Positions 6,055 to 18,403 of a DNA stretch of 64,000 nucleotides are shown piece by piece. Each line of letters opens with the position of its first letter. Within the stretch, counting starts at the first letter, position 1. The stretch is taken from positions 64,001 to 128,000 of the IMG/VR virus record IMGVR_UViG_3300037067_015585; one strand, 5' to 3'. A model generated the notes under the pieces. It searched no databases and had not been told where the DNA came from. It saw nothing but the letters and a program-made list of their open reading frames with translations. The DNA comes from a virus. Its lineage: Duplodnaviria > Caudoviricetes. The translations under genes were made by a program, and so were the position numbers.

Positions 6055-8103
6055 TTAAAATGCACAAACTAACTTGATCTCGGCTATGCTAGTAATAGAT
6101 CCACCATCGATATTAGCTGATATACTTAACCTGTAGTATCTATAACTCGTGTGATTTCCGAATGTAAAATATGGAGTCCAAGCATAATTCCCAGGAGCAG
6201 CTATATTACTTCTAAAATCTAATGGTACAAAATTAGAATTATCGTTAGAACCATATAATGCGAAATCTTTCGGGAAGCCGGTATAGGTAGCTTCTTGTAA
6301 TGCGTATCTCATTACAACGGCACCATAAGGACCAAAATCGTATTGTATCCAATGTGAAGATCCTGAACCGCTTACCCACGCAGCATTAGTTTGGTCGAAT
6401 GCTCTCCACGCTGGTCCGATAACGGTGGTTAAGCTGCATCCAATTCTATCAAGCATATTGTTGCCCATGTTTTGGGCATTTGCACATATAAACTGTGATC
6501 CGTTCCAATAACTTAAGTAATTGTCGCCAGGAGACGAATAATGCTCCATTGATGTCGATCCAGGCACAACTGTCGCACCAGCACCGAGTGCTATTTGCGC
6601 CACTATATTCATAGTTAGACTATCATAGTTCATCTCACCATCAGAAGGATTGCCGTCGTTTCCAATGATAGAAGAAGCACCAGGCAAGCCAGAATTCTTA
6701 CACAAAGCAAGAATTTCACCAGCGTGAGCAAAATACCTTGTTGAAGTTGTTGTCGATTCGCTATCTGCTGTAACTGCATAAGGCGATGGTGTAGTGTAAG
6801 ATGTCATTGCAGCTGTGCATGTTACAGTCGGCATCGGAGACATTGAAGGTGATTGTGATATTGCTTGCGATGGCGATAATGAAAAATGTGGCGACAGTGA
6901 TGGCGAACGCGATGGCGATGGCGACAATGATGGTGAGCGCGATGGCGATGGCGACAATGATCGCGACAACGACGGAGATAACGATATTGATGGTGATAAT
7001 GATATTGATGGCGATAGTGACGGCGATAGCGATGGCGACATTGATACCGATGGAGATATTGATACCGACGTCGATGGATAAGGTTCAGGAATAACAACAG
7101 GTGGCTCAGGTGATGGATATACCTTGCAATCTTCTATGAATTCTCCAAAATAAGTCAACTCTCTTGGGCATGTTGCAATAGCACTAAACCACATCTGTGC
7201 CACTACTGTATCTGTGTCATCGACGCCTTTAATTAGCCACAACCGCTGTGTCCCCCTTGGGTGGCCGCTAACATCAACAGATCCAGATGGTGAGAATCTA
7301 CCATAATAAACACCATTGCAGCCTGAGCAGCAGAGATCTCTACAATACAATTCAGTAGCAACGATACTAGATGAATCACTTAGCCACTCTAGGGTATATG
7401 GAACATCAGATCTAACAAACGGCGTTTTGTATCCAGAAGCACGCAAATACTGATAGCCAGGATTTGCTAAAGTAACAGTCAGCTTCTCAATATAAGTTGG
7501 TACAAATGGGTTATTATTGCCAAATTGTACATCTTGTGTGAGATACTCGCCCAGTGTGATAGTTGTCCCTGACGACCCAAGGACAAGACCACCACTCCAT
7601 ATGTCTCCATTTATCGGTATGTTGTTTCCAGAATATGTTAATGTGTGTGTATACCAAACAGCATACTGTGTAGTGAAAATCGTGTGATCTAGATCAACAT
7701 TAAACGGTTGTGAAATCCATTGATTAGTTTCAAGATTTGTGACAGTGATTGGATATGTAGTGGCAGCACTACTTAAAAAAGCACTATAATGATCAATATT
7801 TGGCCATCTACAAATGCGTAATAATGCCAACACAGAATTCAACGTATCTGCGTCATAAGCTACCGATATGTTATCCTGATTTAGTGATTGCTGTTCTCTC
7901 GCTATCCTTGACACTACGCCTTGTTTATCAGTGGTTAATAGACCGCCTACTGTAACATTACCCCACATGTTGATAAACGGTGTACCTGGAATCAATCCGG
8001 CATTCACAAAGCCAGTTAACATATATCTATTATCGAATGATATAGTATACTGTTTTATTGGAGTCGTTGTATTCGATGGTGAATTTGATGCCACAAATGC
8101 CAT
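6055..8103 (-). CDS. Virion-associated protein with a Ser/Pro mucin-like linker and a C-terminal discoidin (F5/8 type C)-like domain carrying one inserted domain
   Basis: Start likely MAFVASN at 8103 (TAATG overlap). AWRAFD...W...WIQYDF...PKDFALYGSND...YRYYRL...IAEIK discoidin pattern. Confidence 0.75.
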   Translation of the reverse strand: MAFVASNSPSNTTTPIKQYTISFDNRYMLTGFVNAGLIPGTPFINMWGNVTVGGLLTTDKQGVVSRIAREQQSLNQDNISVAYDADTLNSVLALLRICRWPNIDHYSAFLSSAATTYPITVTNLETNQWISQPFNVDLDHTIFTTQYAVWYTHTLTYSGNNIPINGDIWSGGLVLGSSGTTITLGEYLTQDVQFGNNNPFVPTYIEKLTVTLANPGYQYLRASGYKTPFVRSDVPYTLEWLSDSSSIVATELYCRDLCCSGCNGVYYGRFSPSGSVDVSGHPRGTQRLWLIKGVDDTDTVVAQMWFSAIATCPRELTYFGEFIEDCKVYPSPEPPVVIPEPYPSTSVSISPSVSMSPSLSPSLSPSISLSPSISLSPSLSRSLSPSPSRSPSLSPSPSRSPSLSPHFSLSPSQAISQSPSMSPMPTVTCTAAMTSYTTPSPYAVTADSESTTTSTRYFAHAGEILALCKNSGLPGASSIIGNDGNPSDGEMNYDSLTMNIVAQIALGAGATVVPGSTSMEHYSSPGDNYLSYWNGSQFICANAQNMGNNMLDRIGCSLTTVIGPAWRAFDQTNAAWVSGSGSSHWIQYDFGPYGAVVMRYALQEATYTGFPKDFALYGSNDNSNFVPLDFRSNIAAPGNYAWTPYFTFGNHTSYRYYRLSISANIDGGSITSIAEIKLVCAF
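6826..7075 (-). repeat. Low-complexity Ser-Pro repeat (SPSLSPSISLSPS...)
   Basis: Degenerate gatggcga/gacggcga tandem units encoding S-x-S-P repeats. Confidence 0.9.
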
Positions 8104-11100
8104 TATGATCCGCCTTGCAATACAGTAAACCAACAATAATATGGTGGTGTCGTTTGATAGCTGGCATTATCGGTTGCAACTATAGTGTAAGTGTGTAAAC
8201 CGGCAGCACGCTTACCAATATTAAAACTGAAGTCTACACCACCGATGTTTGTGTTAATTGTCGGACCAGTTGCGACTGCAACACTAACACCATCAATCCA
8301 CAATGATATAGCATAAACGCCTCTCCAATCATGTGCATTGCAGGTCAATAAGAGGTCTTGACTAGAATACAAAGTAGTTTGCGTTTGCCCTGCTGTCTTG
8401 AATTGTGCTGTTGTTCTTTCAATCGTATTATATTGAGTTATAACAACATTGCGAATCGTAGCATATGTGCTAGCAGTGATAACGCAATCTGTGGTTGATG
8501 CCGATATTGGCATCGCCAATTCACCATTTACAGCCGTAACGTATATTCTATAATAGCGATATAGAACACCATTTTTAAATGTAAGCCATTTTGACCAAGT
8601 GTTTACGCTAGGGGCATCGACATTAACCCTTGTATCGAGTGTAACCCATATATTATTGTCGTTCGATCCTTGAAATAGAAAATCTCTTGGGAAACCGGTA
8701 TCGCTATTATAGTTCTGCTCATTTATAACTGCACCGTTTACGACAGTCATACCACTATAATTCTGCTCTTGTATGGCATACTTATTGATCACTTTTGGTA
8801 GCGCGCTACCAAAATCATATTCAATGTACCATGGTGGTATAGCTACTGCACTTATCCATCTGTCACGCTCATTAAGATTCGTCCTATTAAACGCCTTCCA
8901 TGCTGAGTAAGTTACAGCGCGTGAAATTGAATAATATTCACTATTTGCACTAACAACATTTGGTGCTGGTGTATTGTCTGACGTCATTATCGCTGTACAA
9001 GTGGTTGTGCCAGGATTGTCAGCTCCATCAATCGATAAACAAACATATTTAATCTCCGCTACGCTTGCAACGCCACCTTCAGAACTGCCGCTAGCAGAAC
9101 CACTACCAATAAATTCAGTTATATTTAATCTATAATAACGATATTCTGTTCCGTTAATAAATGTGAAATATTGAGTCCAAGCATAATCGCCAGGAGCACG
9201 CACACCTATTCTTAAATCTAATGTTGTCCAATTTGTTTCGTCATTAGAACCGCACAAATTAAAATCTACCGGAAAGCCTACATCATTTGCCTCTTGTATG
9301 GCATATTTATTTATAACAACACCAACATTAAAATCATATTGTATCCAATGTATAGATCCTGGTCCACTTATCCATGCATTGTCTGTTCGATCAAAGGCGT
9401 ACCATGCTGGATTGAAATGATAAGAATTTTTGCATCCGACTGTAGAAATCGCCTTATTCCCCATCTTGTCGGCGTCATCACATTGAAATGATGTGCCGTC
9501 CCAATAACTTAAATAATACTCGATACCCGGCCTCATAACATCGAGCGTATTAATCATGTTATTGCCCATGCTTGCGGCCGTCACACATACAAACTGCGAT
9601 CCATCCCAATAACTTAAATAATGTGTTACACCTGGTTTTGATACTGTAATTGTGTTAATCATATTATTGCCAACACTGTCGGCAGTCACACATACAAATT
9701 TCGATCCGTCCCAATAACTCAAATAATGAGTGTCACCAGGTCTTGTTATAGTAATACCATCGATCATATTATTACCAAGATCTCTGGCATTCCCACATAT
9801 AAACTGTGATCCGTTCCAGTAGCTCAAATAATTATCACCAGGTGTAGTCCAATCCCCAGGTTTAACCCACGTATATGTAGCAGTTGGACCCAAAACTATC
9901 TGTGCAAACTTTAGACATGTTGCCGGATCATTTCTCATATCACCATCAGTGTCAGGGACAATATTTCCTGAACCAGGTAATCCAGAATTTATGCATATTC
10001 TAGTGATATTACCAGCGTAATCATAATATGCCGTAACTGGCGGATTTGGAGTATAGTATGCGCATGTTGATGCTGAGACTGAACCAGTAGATCCAAGTGC
10101 GATTTTAGCAATCTTATCTAACGTAGCACTATCACAACGCATTTGTCCACTTGACGTATTAATAGAACTTGCACCAGGAAGACCTGAATTAGCACATAGA
10201 GCTGTAATGGCACTAGGGTTATTGTATGTTAAACTGACTGGTGGCTCAGGTGTATAATATGCTTCTGTCACATTTGTAACGGATACGGTAGAGCCAAGTG
10301 ATATGAAAGCGGCTTTATTTATTGTCTCTGTATCATAATTCATCTGGCCATGTATACTATTGATTGACGAAGCACCAGGCAAACCAGAATTCTTACATAA
10401 AATTGTAATAGCATCGGGAGTCGAATATGATCTCAAATCTGGTGGCGAAGCAAAATTCTCTTCTGTTGCAGATATAACGGTCGCACCAGCACCTAAAGCT
10501 ATCACAGCTACTTCATTTAATGTTGTTGAATCATAATTCATCTGACCTTCGGACGTTTGAATTAACCATGTACCATTTATATCAGATCCGGCACATAAAT
10601 CTGTTACAGCCCCAGGAGTATAGAACCATTTTTCTAACCATGTGATAGCTTCACTGTCTGCACTAACAACATATGGCAATGGCGTAGTATTAGACGTCAT
10701 CTTGGCAGTACAAGCAGTAGTTGATGGATTATCTGCGCCATCGATTGAAAGATTGATAAGACTAATCTCACCAATAATAGTGCATGGATTGGGAAATATA
10801 TCGTTGATCGTAATTTCCGGTTGAGTGACATCCGACACTATTGTAGTGGGCTCTACATAAGTTGGTGCCTTTGTAGTAGTAGCAACTACCGTTGGTGTAA
10901 CCGGCATTGCACTTGTATCTGTACCCGGCAGCGGAAGACCATTGCCTGCAGCAACACCAGTAGCACCAGGAGTCTTATTGAACCGTATTGGCAATATTTC
11001 AGCCGCTGCGATTCTGTCTTTTATTATTCTGAAAACACATGATTGGTTATAGCAGCCTGGCGTATATGGGTGTACTGGTATGATTGCATCAATATTAACA

Positions 11101-11633
11101 AATACAAGACTGTCACGACTTGCTACAGTCGCTGCATATGTCGTCTCTGTTAAATCGTTGGTTGCTAAATTCCGATTATAAACTAAATAATTATTTAATG
11201 GGAAAATATTCTGTGCTGCGGCTACATCTTTAACAGTCGAAACGTTTGCTGGATTTACAAGATCTCGCTCAATTTTAATATCTGAAATATTGTATGCTTT
11301 AGTTGGTGAATTGTCTATTAAATTCTTACTCTGCAGATATTTTAACATCTGAGTAAGATCTTTATTATCAACTATGCCATCTCCATTCACATCGACATAT
11401 GGCTGATTTGATGGTCTGTTTTTGGGTAATGATCCAGTACCATGTGTAGTAATGTAGTTGGAAATAGTATTGTAGTCATTTATATCGACGACTCCATCAC
11501 CCAGTACATCAAATCTATTCCCTGGGTTCTGCCATCTAGATACACCTAATATTGTATTGCTTAGACTAAAGCTACTCACCAATGGAGTAACTTTAATTAC
11601 TTCGACATATGTTGTTAATCCTATTTGCGTCAT
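8103..11633 (-). CDS. Large multidomain virion/adhesin protein: dockerin-like EF-hand pair, two discoidin-like domains (the first with nested inserts) and a C-terminal Ig-like domain
   Basis: DVLGDGVVDINDY and DVNGDGIVDNKDL repeats; two WIQYDF/YIEYDF...YRYYR discoidin units, each preceded by SIDGADNP.TT.CTA.MTS; C-terminal HTYTIVATDN. Confidence 0.8.
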   Translation of the reverse strand: MTQIGLTTYVEVIKVTPLVSSFSLSNTILGVSRWQNPGNRFDVLGDGVVDINDYNTISNYITTHGTGSLPKNRPSNQPYVDVNGDGIVDNKDLTQMLKYLQSKNLIDNSPTKAYNISDIKIERDLVNPANVSTVKDVAAAQNIFPLNNYLVYNRNLATNDLTETTYAATVASRDSLVFVNIDAIIPVHPYTPGCYNQSCVFRIIKDRIAAAEILPIRFNKTPGATGVAAGNGLPLPGTDTSAMPVTPTVVATTTKAPTYVEPTTIVSDVTQPEITINDIFPNPCTIIGEISLINLSIDGADNPSTTACTAKMTSNTTPLPYVVSADSEAITWLEKWFYTPGAVTDLCAGSDINGTWLIQTSEGQMNYDSTTLNEVAVIALGAGATVISATEENFASPPDLRSYSTPDAITILCKNSGLPGASSINSIHGQMNYDTETINKAAFISLGSTVSVTNVTEAYYTPEPPVSLTYNNPSAITALCANSGLPGASSINTSSGQMRCDSATLDKIAKIALGSTGSVSASTCAYYTPNPPVTAYYDYAGNITRICINSGLPGSGNIVPDTDGDMRNDPATCLKFAQIVLGPTATYTWVKPGDWTTPGDNYLSYWNGSQFICGNARDLGNNMIDGITITRPGDTHYLSYWDGSKFVCVTADSVGNNMINTITVSKPGVTHYLSYWDGSQFVCVTAASMGNNMINTLDVMRPGIEYYLSYWDGTSFQCDDADKMGNKAISTVGCKNSYHFNPAWYAFDRTDNAWISGPGSIHWIQYDFNVGVVINKYAIQEANDVGFPVDFNLCGSNDETNWTTLDLRIGVRAPGDYAWTQYFTFINGTEYRYYRLNITEFIGSGSASGSSEGGVASVAEIKYVCLSIDGADNPGTTTCTAIMTSDNTPAPNVVSANSEYYSISRAVTYSAWKAFNRTNLNERDRWISAVAIPPWYIEYDFGSALPKVINKYAIQEQNYSGMTVVNGAVINEQNYNSDTGFPRDFLFQGSNDNNIWVTLDTRVNVDAPSVNTWSKWLTFKNGVLYRYYRIYVTAVNGELAMPISASTTDCVITASTYATIRNVVITQYNTIERTTAQFKTAGQTQTTLYSSQDLLLTCNAHDWRGVYAISLWIDGVSVAVATGPTINTNIGGVDFSFNIGKRAAGLHTYTIVATDNASYQTTPPYYCWFTVLQGGS

Positions 11634-12549: not shown

Positions 12550-12780
12550 TTATCGATATGGTGAATTAGGCATTGATCCTGATGACTTACGGTTACGCTC
12601 TTCAGCAACTTTTTCGAGCTTTCTAGACCACCATGCACGTTCCTCGGCGGTCATGACATTCTGCTCGAAAATCGTAAGTTCCCCGGTACCACCAACTCCG
12701 CATCTTAGCATGAACTGCTGTTCCATCAGCATGTTCCACTCTTTCTCACATTGCTCGTGAGACTTGCGGGCGAAAAAAGG
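12550..12780 (-). CDS. gp51-like / tail-chaperone extension ORF, possibly reached by frameshift from the gp26-like gene
   Basis: MTAEERAWWSRKLEKVAEE helix resembles the small ORF that follows gp26-like genes; overlaps the upstream gene in the +1 frame. Confidence 0.55.
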   Translation of the reverse strand, partial: PFFARKSHEQCEKEWNMLMEQQFMLRCGVGGTGELTIFEQNVMTAEERAWWSRKLEKVAEERNRKSSGSMPNSPYR

Positions 12781-13765
12781 ACTCGGTGATCGGCAGCATA
12801 GCACGGTGCGTTTCGCCGCAACCAGCACATTGCATTTCAATCATCGTTTCGATGCTCGGAGTATGTTCAGATAACCACTCTCTAATAACCGCAAGATCAG
12901 TAGATTGCATCTTGTTTACTATGCTTTTGATCTTGAATCTATCAGTTACGCCCATGATATCAACTATGACTGTCTCGATATTTTGTGTTACAATATCGTC
13001 AAGTGCAACCTCATCATGGCTATGATCCACTTGTTGCATTACACGATCTCTCGGTTTAATTCTAGCTCTTGATGAACCACCCAATATATTTTGGGCTTTT
13101 TTTGTTCTTTGGATGCTGCTAGCATCACGAACACGCAGGAATCTTATAGATGCCGATATATCTCGCCCGGTTGTCTTTGTGAGATATGGGAGATTAATTT
13201 TGAATGGCTCAGAACCCAATGATTCGTCTGCCCATATTATTGTGTTGACCAATTCATTTAAGTCGATGGTGTGAGTTGCAGTCTGCCCACACTGTTGATT
13301 GGGGCATGTTGTCGCGAATTCATATTCATTTCCGTGTGTGATACCGCGAAGATAGTACAATAGATATATCTGATCTCCGACTAACATATCTTGGATATCA
13401 AATCCATCTGGAAAACGACAACATTCTTTAAGCATATAATCAATCGACTGACCAGTTTGTGCCAGTCGAGCGGTAGCTAAAATTTTATCGATCTTAGCCG
13501 ACCAAGCTCTAACAGAAACAACACCGGATGTCCAACCATAATATAATCCTTTACTAGGTAATGTGGTCTCCTCCCACGGGATTAACTGCTCCGGCGAAGC
13601 TCTAGAAATAATATCAACAATATCAACATCTGATGTAGCGTTACCAACTAATTTCGCAATTTCAGAGTTTGGTACTTCATCAGTTTTTTTAATTGTTTTA
13701 TCTGTGTTCTGTGGTTTCTGCGATTTGATTTCGTCAGTCAAAGAAACCTCTTCTATATCAGCCAT
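12746..13765 (-). CDS. T4 gp26-like baseplate hub assembly chaperone
   Basis: LPSKGLYY, GDQIYLLYYLRGITHG, two CxxC-type knuckles (CPNQQC, CAGC) and C-terminal SFFRP; adjacent to tube genes. Confidence 0.75.
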   Translation of the reverse strand: MADIEEVSLTDEIKSQKPQNTDKTIKKTDEVPNSEIAKLVGNATSDVDIVDIISRASPEQLIPWEETTLPSKGLYYGWTSGVVSVRAWSAKIDKILATARLAQTGQSIDYMLKECCRFPDGFDIQDMLVGDQIYLLYYLRGITHGNEYEFATTCPNQQCGQTATHTIDLNELVNTIIWADESLGSEPFKINLPYLTKTTGRDISASIRFLRVRDASSIQRTKKAQNILGGSSRARIKPRDRVMQQVDHSHDEVALDDIVTQNIETVIVDIMGVTDRFKIKSIVNKMQSTDLAVIREWLSEHTPSIETMIEMQCAGCGETHRAMLPITESFFRPQVSRAM

Positions 13766-13835
13766 GATCACCTCAAATGTGTTGTTGGGCTATGTTATCA
13801 CAAAGCATAACATTATTTACTAAATGAAATAGATA

Positions 13836-15547: not shown

Positions 15548-18403
15548 TTATGATGTAAGTCCTGCAACAACACCGCCAGCAGCCAAAACTTCTTCTGAAG
15601 TGAAGGATGCCGAAGATTGCATTACAACAAGGTTCAGTACGATAAATTCAACCGTACGCGTCGGCTTGAGGAAGACTGATATCCACAACTGATTAAGATC
15701 GCGTCTGGTTGGCGTGTTGTTCGTCGCATCGCAAACAACATTAAAAGCATCGAGCCCACGCCGTGCTGCGACATCAGCCAAGAATGGATTAATAAGCGAT
15801 TTAACCCGATTCCATGTCGTTTCGTCATTTGGCTCAAAAACAAATGTTCTTAATGTCTCGATCAGGTTCTTCTTCAAGTAAATCAACAACATCCTGACAT
15901 TAACTCTATCAAGTGCTGTCTCAGTTCTTTGAAGCGTACGCTGGCCAAAGATTACGATGCCATCCTTGGGGAACGATACTAGTGGATTAACGGCATTGCC
16001 GCTACCATACAATAGATCGCGTTCACCTTGGCTTGGATTATATTCAACCTTTAATGCTGTTCTCAAAACACCACGGTTCACGCCAGCAGGGGCAAACCAT
16101 TGTTCTGCAACATTTGCTGTATTAGCAAAAACTCCAGCTGCATGACCAGATGGCGGAATCCAGATGTTTTGGGCACTGTATTGGTCGTATATTTCAACCC
16201 AACCCCAGTACAATGCACCGTAGCTGCTATTGATAGCCGTAGACAAATCAGAAAGCAGCATGCCGTTGTGCCAATCAACAACTTGTTGCGGTCTGAGCCC
16301 AAAAGGAGGATCAACGATGTACAAAACATCGCCACGGCTCTCGCACAATTGCAAGCCTTGACCGATAACAGCACCTGATGTCATACCTGGTATGACCAGC
16401 AAATTGATATCATAAGTCTCAGAATTCTGAATGCTATACATGCCGCTTGAAGAGGCAGCATTACCGATGATGGCTGCATCCAATTCGCTCGAGTATGCTG
16501 GATCTATTGGGATACCATTGGCACCACCACTGAAAACGTGGCTCGATAATTGTGCTGGTTGACGCACTTCGTAAGTTGATGCGTCTGCTGGGTCATTATT
16601 CAAGAATGACGGTCGCTCTTCCCAATTGACAAAATTGTCTCCATTCACACCGCCAAGTGTCGTGCCAGGATTCAAAATATTGCCAACATATCTCGCATCA
16701 GTCTTATCAAAACTGATGTTCTGGACAGTATTAGCAACAGCACCATTTTTGTCGGTAATTACTAATTGATATCTAGCAGCCGCACGGCTGGAGATTTGTG
16801 TCTGCAATGAAAGAGTCAACTTGTAATCATCTAACCAAGTTCCGGCACTAGTAGCAACAAACCAGCCAACAACGTTTTGGAAGTATGCTGCATCAAGTGC
16901 ACATTGTGGACCACTGGGATCTTGTTCGCAAGACAATGGTACAGATGGCGTAATTTCACCAGTGTTGGGAAGCGCATTTCGGCTATCATAAAAACCACGA
17001 TATGCCTTAGTATAAGGCGCAAGTATCCCAATCTCTTCAGCGAACATCAATGTCTTAAGGTGAGAATAACTAGCCTTAAGTTGAAGTTGATCGAGTCGAT
17101 GCGTATCTGACGTCATGATTACGACATGCGAAGTACCACCTGGTGCCGTGATCGCAAACGACGTAAAGTACGTCTCGCCAGATTGAACACCGTTGCTATT
17201 GATCGCAGAAGCTATTGTCGCGGCTGTGATGTTCGTCCCAACCGGCATTCCAAAAACAATATTGGTTGTAGCACTTCCATCTGCAGCAATCACATCAAGT
17301 GAGATACGATTGCTTTGAGTGTTTATGAAGTATGGCTCTGCGTCCGTTCCAATCAAATAGCTACGCGGAATATCATAAGCGTACTGCTGCACGCCGATCT
17401 CGTAGGCAAAAGAACATGAACCAACAAGCTGAATGCGTGCACCAGAAACCTTTGTACGGAATTCTGGATATTCGACGTCATCAGTAGTAATGACTGCAGC
17501 GACGTAATCCTCAGAGGCCACAAGTAAGTTAATTGCATTAACAAATGCTGTAGCCGTGGTATATGTCGCTGTCGGCATCACATATGTATTTCCGACACCG
17601 TTTACTTCGACCTGGAACGATTTGTTGTATGGCTTGGCCACAAACAAGAACATATCATTCGCATCTAAACGACCACTAGTAACAAGAATGTTGCATACTA
17701 GCCCATCACCGATATCAATATTGTGACTTACACCAGTCATTTTTTCTTCCAAGACACCACTCACCATCAGTGCGCTATCGGAAGAGCGTACGACTTTGAA
17801 AGCTGCACCTTTCATAGAATAACCATCATCTGGAGCACCAGTGATGTACACAGCATAGGTATCTTCAGTGCAACCTGTGTAACTGTCGCTAAGATCTGTC
17901 TCACCAGAGAATTGTAACGTTGCGTCAGATGGGCCATCTGTAACTGATGTACTGACATCAGTGTACGTGATATCTGCAACACCAGCCGCATGAAAAGAAA
18001 CTGGTGTTGTGGAAGATATGGCATGCATCACTATGCTACCATAATCAATCCCGGTAAAAACAGGAATTCGATTCCACCCATTCAAGCGGCTACCGGAAGT
18101 ATCAATGCAAACGTCGCTAAGGCCGGTTGGCTGCCCTTCTTGACATTCGATGCCGACGCGTACAATGTATGCTTGGTCGCTATTTACTAAATATTCTAGT
18201 ACAGCATACATCAAATAGCTATCGACAAATGGCTCACCAAATGTGTCAATAGCCTGCTGTGGACCACTAACGAAAATAGGTGTATTCAAGGGGCCTTTAC
18301 TGGCAGTACCGATGAATGCAGCACGAAGTGGGCCAGAACCACCTGTCACGTTGCTAATGTCTATTTCCCTTGGGTAAACACCCGGACTCAGATATGTGGC
18401 CAT
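15548..18403 (-). CDS. Contractile tail sheath protein (gp18 family) with large central insertions
   Basis: YLSPGVYPREID N-terminus; WFAPAGVNRG, FGQRTLQ, DRVNVRMLL, FVFEPND and KPTRTVEFI motifs. Confidence 0.97.
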   Translation of the reverse strand: MATYLSPGVYPREIDISNVTGGSGPLRAAFIGTASKGPLNTPIFVSGPQQAIDTFGEPFVDSYLMYAVLEYLVNSDQAYIVRVGIECQEGQPTGLSDVCIDTSGSRLNGWNRIPVFTGIDYGSIVMHAISSTTPVSFHAAGVADITYTDVSTSVTDGPSDATLQFSGETDLSDSYTGCTEDTYAVYITGAPDDGYSMKGAAFKVVRSSDSALMVSGVLEEKMTGVSHNIDIGDGLVCNILVTSGRLDANDMFLFVAKPYNKSFQVEVNGVGNTYVMPTATYTTATAFVNAINLLVASEDYVAAVITTDDVEYPEFRTKVSGARIQLVGSCSFAYEIGVQQYAYDIPRSYLIGTDAEPYFINTQSNRISLDVIAADGSATTNIVFGMPVGTNITAATIASAINSNGVQSGETYFTSFAITAPGGTSHVVIMTSDTHRLDQLQLKASYSHLKTLMFAEEIGILAPYTKAYRGFYDSRNALPNTGEITPSVPLSCEQDPSGPQCALDAAYFQNVVGWFVATSAGTWLDDYKLTLSLQTQISSRAAARYQLVITDKNGAVANTVQNISFDKTDARYVGNILNPGTTLGGVNGDNFVNWEERPSFLNNDPADASTYEVRQPAQLSSHVFSGGANGIPIDPAYSSELDAAIIGNAASSSGMYSIQNSETYDINLLVIPGMTSGAVIGQGLQLCESRGDVLYIVDPPFGLRPQQVVDWHNGMLLSDLSTAINSSYGALYWGWVEIYDQYSAQNIWIPPSGHAAGVFANTANVAEQWFAPAGVNRGVLRTALKVEYNPSQGERDLLYGSGNAVNPLVSFPKDGIVIFGQRTLQRTETALDRVNVRMLLIYLKKNLIETLRTFVFEPNDETTWNRVKSLINPFLADVAARRGLDAFNVVCDATNNTPTRRDLNQLWISVFLKPTRTVEFIVLNLVVMQSSASFTSEEVLAAGGVVAGLTS

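Follow-up and report, generated by a model that had tools for sequence, protein, structure and literature searches.

A small domain probably nested four deep within itself inside a discoidin loop of a phage tail-fibre-type protein

Here we describe P0001, a tail-fibre- or receptor-binding-type protein of 1176 amino acids (aa) in which one small domain is most probably nested four deep within itself, the resulting stack sitting in a loop of the first of two discoidin domains. The protein was recognised from its open reading frame (ORF) and translation together with Pfam and PHROG matches, and its gene (8103-11633) lies in a 64,000-nucleotide stretch of viral DNA, hereafter the window, which covers bases 64001-128000 of the 234,376-bp IMG/VR virus record IMGVR_UViG_3300037067_015585 (estimated to be 64% complete). 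Coordinates refer to the window and features to its minus strand unless stated otherwise. As read from the sequence, the chain would run outwards through four N-terminal halves of the domain (N1 to N4) and back through four C-terminal halves (Ca to Cd). This arrangement was first proposed in a sequence-only reading. In its favour are the parity of the two halves, a likeness between halves that is mirrored across proteins, a predicted single-domain fold and a weak docking of N1 with the last C-half, whereas the contacts which that reading had predicted (N1-C1, N2-C2 and N3-C3) could not be read from the AlphaFold2 (AF2) model of the whole region, where the predicted local distance difference test score (pLDDT) is ~40.

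In the arrangement that we favour, the first loop of discoidin 1, after the strand ending in SADSE, would host an alpha/beta unit of ~100 residues, and this unit would in turn be interrupted by a further copy at a fixed turn, between ...Y-x-(S/T)-P and P-G-D-x-Y-L-S-Y-W, three times over. N1 would then pair with the last C-half (Cd), N4 with the first (Ca), and N2 and N3 with the C-halves in between (Cb and Cc). The outcome would be four complete domains in series, each joined to the next by two short linkers, with a contiguous unit at the far end. The insert loop, which follows an ...ASS-like first strand, we take to be the equivalent of spike 1 of the factor VIII C2 domain, at the ligand-binding end; on that assumption the stack would project from the binding face of the discoidin domain.

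The insert and the fold of its unit

P0001 comprises, in order, a dockerin module, discoidin 1 (probably split by the putative stack), discoidin 2 and a C-terminal domain. It passes the Pfam threshold for F5_F8_type_C (PF00754; 49.6 bits vs 28.2) in two stretches, the best of which aligns aa 737-844 to profile positions 10-115, so that the match to discoidin 1 begins at profile position 10, downstream of the insert. The N-terminal piece of discoidin 1 (~aa 300-328; 10650-10736), as read from the translation, ends in VSADSE (aa 323-328), and the C-terminal piece (aa 742 to ~862; 9048-9410), which contributes to the PF00754 match, begins with PAWYAF (aa 742-747). Between them lie ~413 residues, which would interrupt the domain at the very site, between VSADSE and PAWYAFD, where the sequence-only reading had placed the stack. 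Discoidin 2 (~aa 866-1040; 8514-9038; the second PF00754 stretch) has no insert at the equivalent loop, which holds ~12 residues between VSANSE and AWKAF. A run C-T-A-x-M-T-S...V-S-A-(D/N)-S-E precedes both discoidin domains of P0001, as well as those of its neighbour P0002 and of two proteins described below, P0004 and P0013. In the AF2 model of the split discoidin 1, confidence is low and the C-terminal piece is the only part with pLDDT >70. Discoidin 2 also contains a short duplication-like segment, QEQNYSG ... NEQNYNS (window ~8600-8720, ~aa 970-1010), which recurs in P0004 and P0013.

The insert is built of two kinds of repeat. Cysteines of the N-halves fall at aa 347, 413, 480 and 547, with a period of 66-67 aa, while the YLSYW motif of the C-halves is found at aa 602, 637, 672 and 707, an exact 35-aa (105-nt) period that Tandem Repeats Finder (TRF) reports at 9549-9832 as 2.7 copies with 77% matches. 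A profile of the contiguous unit gives one complete match in P0001 (profile 1-102, E 5.5e-48), three N-only matches (profile ~1-68/75, E 2e-18 to 5e-12) and three C-only matches (profile 65/69-101, E 3e-13 to 7e-7), and these are ordered as three N-only, one full and three C-only. N1, the outermost N-half, spans aa 329-399 (10437-10649; hidden Markov model (HMM) positions 6-67, E 5.1e-12) and is followed by the N-halves of the second unit, N2 (aa 400-466; 10236-10436; HMM 2-65, E 7e-14), and of the third, N3 (aa 467-534; 10032-10235; HMM 2-66, E 2.2e-18). The full match, N4 plus Ca, is the innermost complete unit (aa 535-629; 9747-10031). After it come the C-halves Cb (aa 630-664; 9642-9746; HMM 64-100), whose partner would be N3 or N2; Cc (aa 665-699; 9537-9641; HMM 68-99), which lies inside the 105-nt period and whose partner would be N2 or N3; and the outermost, Cd (aa 700-741; 9411-9536; HMM 69-99).

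The profile matches and the exact 35-aa spacing bear out the order first noticed in the sequence-only reading, of three N-halves, a complete unit and three C-halves spaced at 105 nt, and the coordinates given at that time were correct within ~10 nt. Tandem beads on a string would have appeared as complete units placed head to tail; these are not seen, and the profile finds one complete match and six halves. Interrupted units carry two features absent from contiguous ones, namely a Pro-rich, YYTPxPP-like exit after the N-half and one extra residue before the C-half (PGDTHY vs PGD-NY). The linkers in P0001 are short, with 2-3 residues from one C-half to the next and ~6, rich in proline, from one N-half to the next. 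Elsewhere in this genome a profile search finds the unit only once, intact, in P0002, as a single contiguous copy at the same discoidin loop (aa 458-574 of the listed ORF; 6415-6765; full profile match, E 3.3e-52). This intact copy and the ~12-residue loop of discoidin 2 had been put forward as internal controls, and both stand.

Because the record is of metagenomic origin, the repeats could in principle reflect misassembly or a chimera, the true gene holding one unit. At the DNA level the copies within P0001 share only 47-76% identity, a divergence much too great for an assembler to mix them up, so they appear to be old and not an artefact of assembly. The reading frame is open throughout, two units stand at this loop in a gene of an independent contig, and a further protein contains a block like N3 N4 Ca Cb. 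We consider an artefact scarcely credible.

The fold of the unit was predicted from its contiguous form. With a 19-row alignment, the AF2 model of the P0002 unit has a mean pLDDT of 94.7 and a predicted template modelling score (pTM) of 0.86. It consists of a long N-terminal strand (residues 4-12), a helix (15-23), a short strand (43-46), the main helix (49-60), a further short strand (72-74), a hairpin (83-87 and 92-96; YLSYW / QFIC) and a long C-terminal strand (104-116). In this model both halves together form one compact alpha/beta domain of ~100 residues, to which the 35-residue C-half contributes only three strands. The insertion point maps to the turn 75-82, between the short strand 72-74 and the hairpin strand 83-87. 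From the strand order we infer that this turn would lie at the pole opposite both termini, so that repeated insertion there would produce a linear stack.

The unit has no clear counterpart in the domain collections searched. Pfam gives no family at E <= 1 for the unit or for its distant relatives, SRCR included, and no NCBIfam model covers it. Sequence and profile searches of PDB with the unit yielded no true link and no SRCR chain; a laccase was set aside as a chance match, as were WD40 proteins, which matched through a D-N-T-x-x-x-W motif. Foldseek with the unit model returned nothing at E <= 0.001 in PDB or BFVD. With VIA-align, many of the rows at Z >= 2, and most of the top seven, are SRCR domains (enteropeptidase, hepsin, TMPRSS2/13, CD5, CD6, factor I, CD163, SCARA5 and LOXL2), the best having a Z of only 3.8 at a root-mean-square deviation (rmsd) of 3.8 A over 84 residues; a second such comparison with SRCR gave Z 3.4, rmsd 4.2 A and 89 residues. 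The modelled unit would thus be weakly SRCR-like and not a member of the SRCR family, and it appears to represent an undescribed domain family that has no Pfam model.

Relatives and the depth series

A single-unit scan of 1.84 billion representatives gave nine matches, five of which were judged real, and word-indexed and pattern searches added a few more relatives. Four repeat or low-complexity proteins with marginal per-domain scores (P0006, P0007, P0009 and P0011) were treated as chance matches, and a DNA polymerase containing HYLSYWDG (L013) was discarded as a false one. Searched with an alignment, viral contigs yielded two loci, L001 (the contig of P0004) and L002 (the source of P0013). 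A further alignment found nothing in viral contigs beyond the known loci, the whole insert as query found no relatives among them, and searches of metagenome contigs and genome contigs found none either, P0013 being the only relative gained from these searches. The unit family appears to be rare.

The close relatives form a series of depths. P0013 (888 aa) shares the architecture of P0001 and holds one contiguous unit at the same discoidin loop. P0004 (965 aa), encoded on a contig that is labelled as a Cloacimonetes metagenome-assembled genome (MAG) and is also an IMG/VR virus contig, is again built like P0001 and has N N C C at that loop. In P0003 (1251 aa), an N N C C block lies between LamG-like domains, and a separate contiguous unit precedes an uninterrupted discoidin domain. 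Like-built proteins therefore hold 1, 2 or 4 units at one discoidin loop. An HMM built from the single-copy unit had been suggested in the sequence-only reading as a way to look for homologues of other nesting depths, and the relatives found here include one- and two-unit forms at the same loop. N- and C-halves are equal in number in all six blocks of the five proteins: 1/1 in P0013, 1/1 in P0002, 2/2 in P0004, 2/2 and 1/1 in P0003, and 4/4 in P0001.

P0003 also begins with what looks like a degenerate unit (aa 1-76), in which the main helix is all that is left of the N-terminal part; a stretch rich in Gly and Ser comes next, and then a C-half lacking Cys. Its ORF call is probably not truncated, because the gene begins 76 nt past a divergent neighbour on a 5-kb contig.

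More distant relatives (P0008, P0010, P0012 and P0015-P0022) come from MAGs labelled Patescibacteria, Peribacteraceae, Deltaproteobacteria and others. The unit in them is always contiguous, N followed by C, and P0008 has two complete units in series. Motifs of both halves are kept: D..T in the main helix, and SPGDN..(4)..W.G..F and a final T-C in the C-half. In P0008, P0012 and P0019 (from MAGs labelled Patescibacteria, Peribacteraceae and Deltaproteobacteria), the contiguous unit adjoins 'acidic double-disulfide repeats' (NF033662) and DUF11 repeats, neighbours that suggest an extracellular surface-protein context for the unit family.

Pairing of the halves and origin of the stack

Likeness between halves is mirrored from one protein to another. 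The N-half closest to N1 is the first of P0004 (58-62% identity), and Cd and the last C-half of P0004 are each other's closest C-half (56%). At the other end of the putative stack, N4 and Ca are closest to the inner N-half and inner C-half of P0003 (75% and 79% identity). N2 and N3 are 61% identical to each other, and Cb and Cc 79%; both pairs resemble the outer pair of P0003, to whose outer C-half Cb is 68% identical. The symmetric sub-block N3 N4 Ca Cb thus appears to exist as a self-contained module in P0003 and, because a block of this kind stands free there, N3 would belong with Cb and N4 with Ca.

The same order of halves could in principle have a quite different origin, as two independent tandem arrays in which four N-halves form a helical repeat and four C-halves a beta-hairpin repeat, each with its own duplications and with no one-to-one pairing. 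Two tandem half-duplications would likewise produce the order N N N N C C C C, TRF does detect the C-halves as a regular 105-nt tandem array, and copies that are sisters lie side by side (N2 and N3, Cb and Cc). Against this, N and C are equally numerous in all six blocks (five proteins), the single domain predicted with confidence requires both halves, a C-half of 35 residues has only three strands of its own, distant relatives always show N and C contiguous, and the likeness of halves is mirrored across proteins. We therefore regard independent arrays as improbable.

Nested pairing was compared with other one-to-one schemes by scoring 96 within-protein pairings according to the correlation of N-N with C-C identities. 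It ranks 2nd of the 96 (r 0.54), tied with a version in which the partners of N2 and N3 are swapped, and parallel pairing comes 35th (r 0.16), falling to 66th if the comparison is confined to halves of different proteins.

Docking provided a separate view of the outermost pair. N1 (aa 329-399) and Cd (aa 700-742), which lie ~300 residues apart in the chain, were docked as two chains with a score of 0.58 (runs 0.58, 0.73 and 0.58), the best of three controls reaching 0.01; the runs agree in >=91% of contacts, and the pLDDT of the partner is at least 73. The mark used is reached by 58 of 80 solved complexes and by 2 of 110 mismatched pairs, counts that are only approximate for the custom alignments used here, and passes at or below 0.60 comprise only 7 of the 80 solved complexes and both of the passing mismatches. 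The docking thus lends weak support to an N1-Cd contact in the models.

Several points weigh against the nested arrangement. Run on aa 287-866 of P0001 with a 6-row alignment, AF2 gave a mean pLDDT of 40.5, with the insert <50 throughout, and this model was not used for topology. Any N-half docked with any C-half would probably pass in the same way, and the order of partners is not fixed by the docking. The parity of halves comes from six blocks in only five close-family proteins. By sequence, the partners of N2 and N3 among Cb and Cc are indistinguishable. The correlation between N- and C-halves may derive partly from a constraint shared by interrupted as opposed to contiguous units and not from common descent, although such a constraint on interrupted units is itself a prediction of nesting. 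Finally, a single contiguous insertion could not have placed sister units (N2 and N3, Cb and Cc) next to each other in the nest.

Some of these points leave room for one-to-one pairing that is not nested, either in parallel, with N1 joined to the first C-half and the others following in order, or by domain swapping between subunits of an oligomeric fibre. Phage fibre proteins are commonly trimers, which would suit such swapping, the AF2 model of the four-deep region is unusable, and docking cannot tell which C-half goes with N1. The ranking of pairings favours nesting over the parallel scheme, however, and the N4-Ca junction is a short turn like that of contiguous units, which fixes the innermost pair. 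Linkers of 2-3 residues between C-halves and ~6 between N-halves fit a return path along the same stack, and P0003 carries the sub-block N3 N4 Ca Cb in complete form. We consider non-nested pairing unlikely, if somewhat less so than independent arrays, and nesting remains our preferred explanation.

If the units are nested, their history needs at least paired events, because adjacent units of the nest are sisters (N2/N3 and Cb/Cc). A simple route, the entry in one insertion of a P0003-like two-deep block into a P0004-like two-deep host, was considered and is not supported: N2 and Cc share only 41-45% identity with the inner unit of P0004. The N-half of that inner unit is closest to the P0002 unit (73%).

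Genomic setting and comparison with known systems

The source of the window appears to be a large myovirus-like phage, because PHROG matches include a tail sheath (15548-18403), a baseplate hub (12746-13771) and replication genes (DNA polymerase, DnaB-like helicase and primase). Nearly all genes of the window are carried on the minus strand, and the gene for P0001 comes after those for the sheath and the baseplate hub and is followed by a second fibre-like gene, that for P0002. P0001 itself matches the tail protein family phrog_17517 (E 5e-27); its only relatives in phage databases are 'putative carbohydrate binding proteins' of Erwinia jumbo phages, which align across the discoidin part. Near its N-terminus P0001 carries a type I dockerin module (aa 41-100; 11334-11513; PF00404, 37.1 bits vs a gathering score of 22.9), a feature of this phage fibre-type protein that is kept in P0004 and P0013.

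The P0002 gene (6055-8103) has a probable ATG start at 8103, which the stop of P0001 overlaps as TAATG (window 8101-8105). Its listed ORF (6055-8136, minus strand) begins at a TTG at 8136 that is probably too far upstream; the like-built protein P0014 (L002:6633-9545) starts at the Met equivalent to ATG 8103. Between the N-terminal part and the discoidin module of P0002 lies a long Ser/Pro-rich low-complexity linker with SPSxS-type repeats (window 6850-7100, ~aa 345-430), which yields spurious ORFs in other frames and on the opposite strand (6801-7097). P0014 and P0002 have in common their N-terminal ~330 residues and a similar Ser/Pro linker, and in place of the discoidin-plus-unit module of P0002 the C-terminal part of P0014 has a quite different, repeat-rich region. 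The distal module seems to have been exchanged.

The sequence-only reading further proposed a rigid stalk that would carry the terminal domain outwards, with cysteines of the N- and C-halves paired in nested order. Such disulfide pairing would not be universal, because one outer C-half of P0003 lacks Cys. What the stack does is a matter of speculation: it could be an arm that serves adhesion or spacing, with its length or valency adjusted as whole units are gained and lost, an idea that fits both the 1, 2, 4 series and the distal module swap between P0002 and P0014. More tentatively still, and as something we hold to be possible rather than probable, self-nesting at a fixed turn could provide phage receptor-binding proteins with a 'telescopic' device that is evolvable, with units or blocks such as N3 N4 Ca Cb moving as cassettes between and into proteins to set the reach or valency of the tip, and with an SRCR-like extracellular family common to a jumbo-phage lineage and to surface proteins of candidate phyla radiation (CPR) and other bacteria.

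Annotation pipelines read multi-domain proteins as beads on a string, as most of them are, and a self-nested domain would be missed or taken for two unrelated repeat arrays. The 1, 2, 4 series, together with a small domain that AF2 predicts confidently, offers a tractable system for the origin of nests, and one that is equally suited to the study of folding when the halves of a domain lie 300 residues apart. It also points to a way in which a receptor-binding tip could vary in length or valency while the rest of the fibre stays as it is, and the unit would define a new domain family for which Pfam has no model.

Discoidin domains of the CBM32-like kind are found in phage tail proteins, and those of P0001 accord with this in passing the Pfam threshold and matching PHROG tail-protein families; discoidin 1 would differ from an ordinary discoidin domain in being split after its first strand by ~413 residues. 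With SRCR domains the modelled unit shares a length of ~100 aa and one main helix packed on a beta-sheet, whereas its Z scores are far below the level of a shared fold and its Cys pattern differs.

Domain insertion in general is common and has been surveyed with ECOD: inserts tend to be smaller than their hosts, with adjacent termini, and to enter a surface loop of the host, nested cases being a minority (PMC13114784). Most published insertions involve different families and one level, whereas in P0001 host and guest would be of the same family three times over, on a heterologous discoidin host. The closest published case is Si3 of the cyanobacterial RNA polymerase beta' subunit (RpoC2), in whose crystal structure SBHM-2 to -5 are built from distant segments of the chain (PMC10895346), and for whose SBHM/HABAS domains a six-level recursive insertion architecture has been described (PMC13114784); recursive insertion of the same domain is therefore already known in principle. 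The topology is solved for Si3 and inferred here for P0001. In both, a small domain would be inserted in its own copies at several levels, inside a loop of a host, with the chain running out and back, and Si3 likewise forms an elongated multi-domain arm. The units themselves appear distinct: SBHM is an all-beta barrel, the P0001 unit a predicted alpha/beta domain with two helices and a weak likeness to SRCR, and there is no SBHM entry among the structural rows for the unit, which has no Pfam match either. The host is a discoidin loop of a phage fibre in P0001 and the trigger loop of the polymerase in Si3. Compared with Si3, the stack of P0001 would be strictly linear and regular, with every insertion at one site and no branching, and it belongs to a set of like-built proteins of depth 1, 2 and 4.

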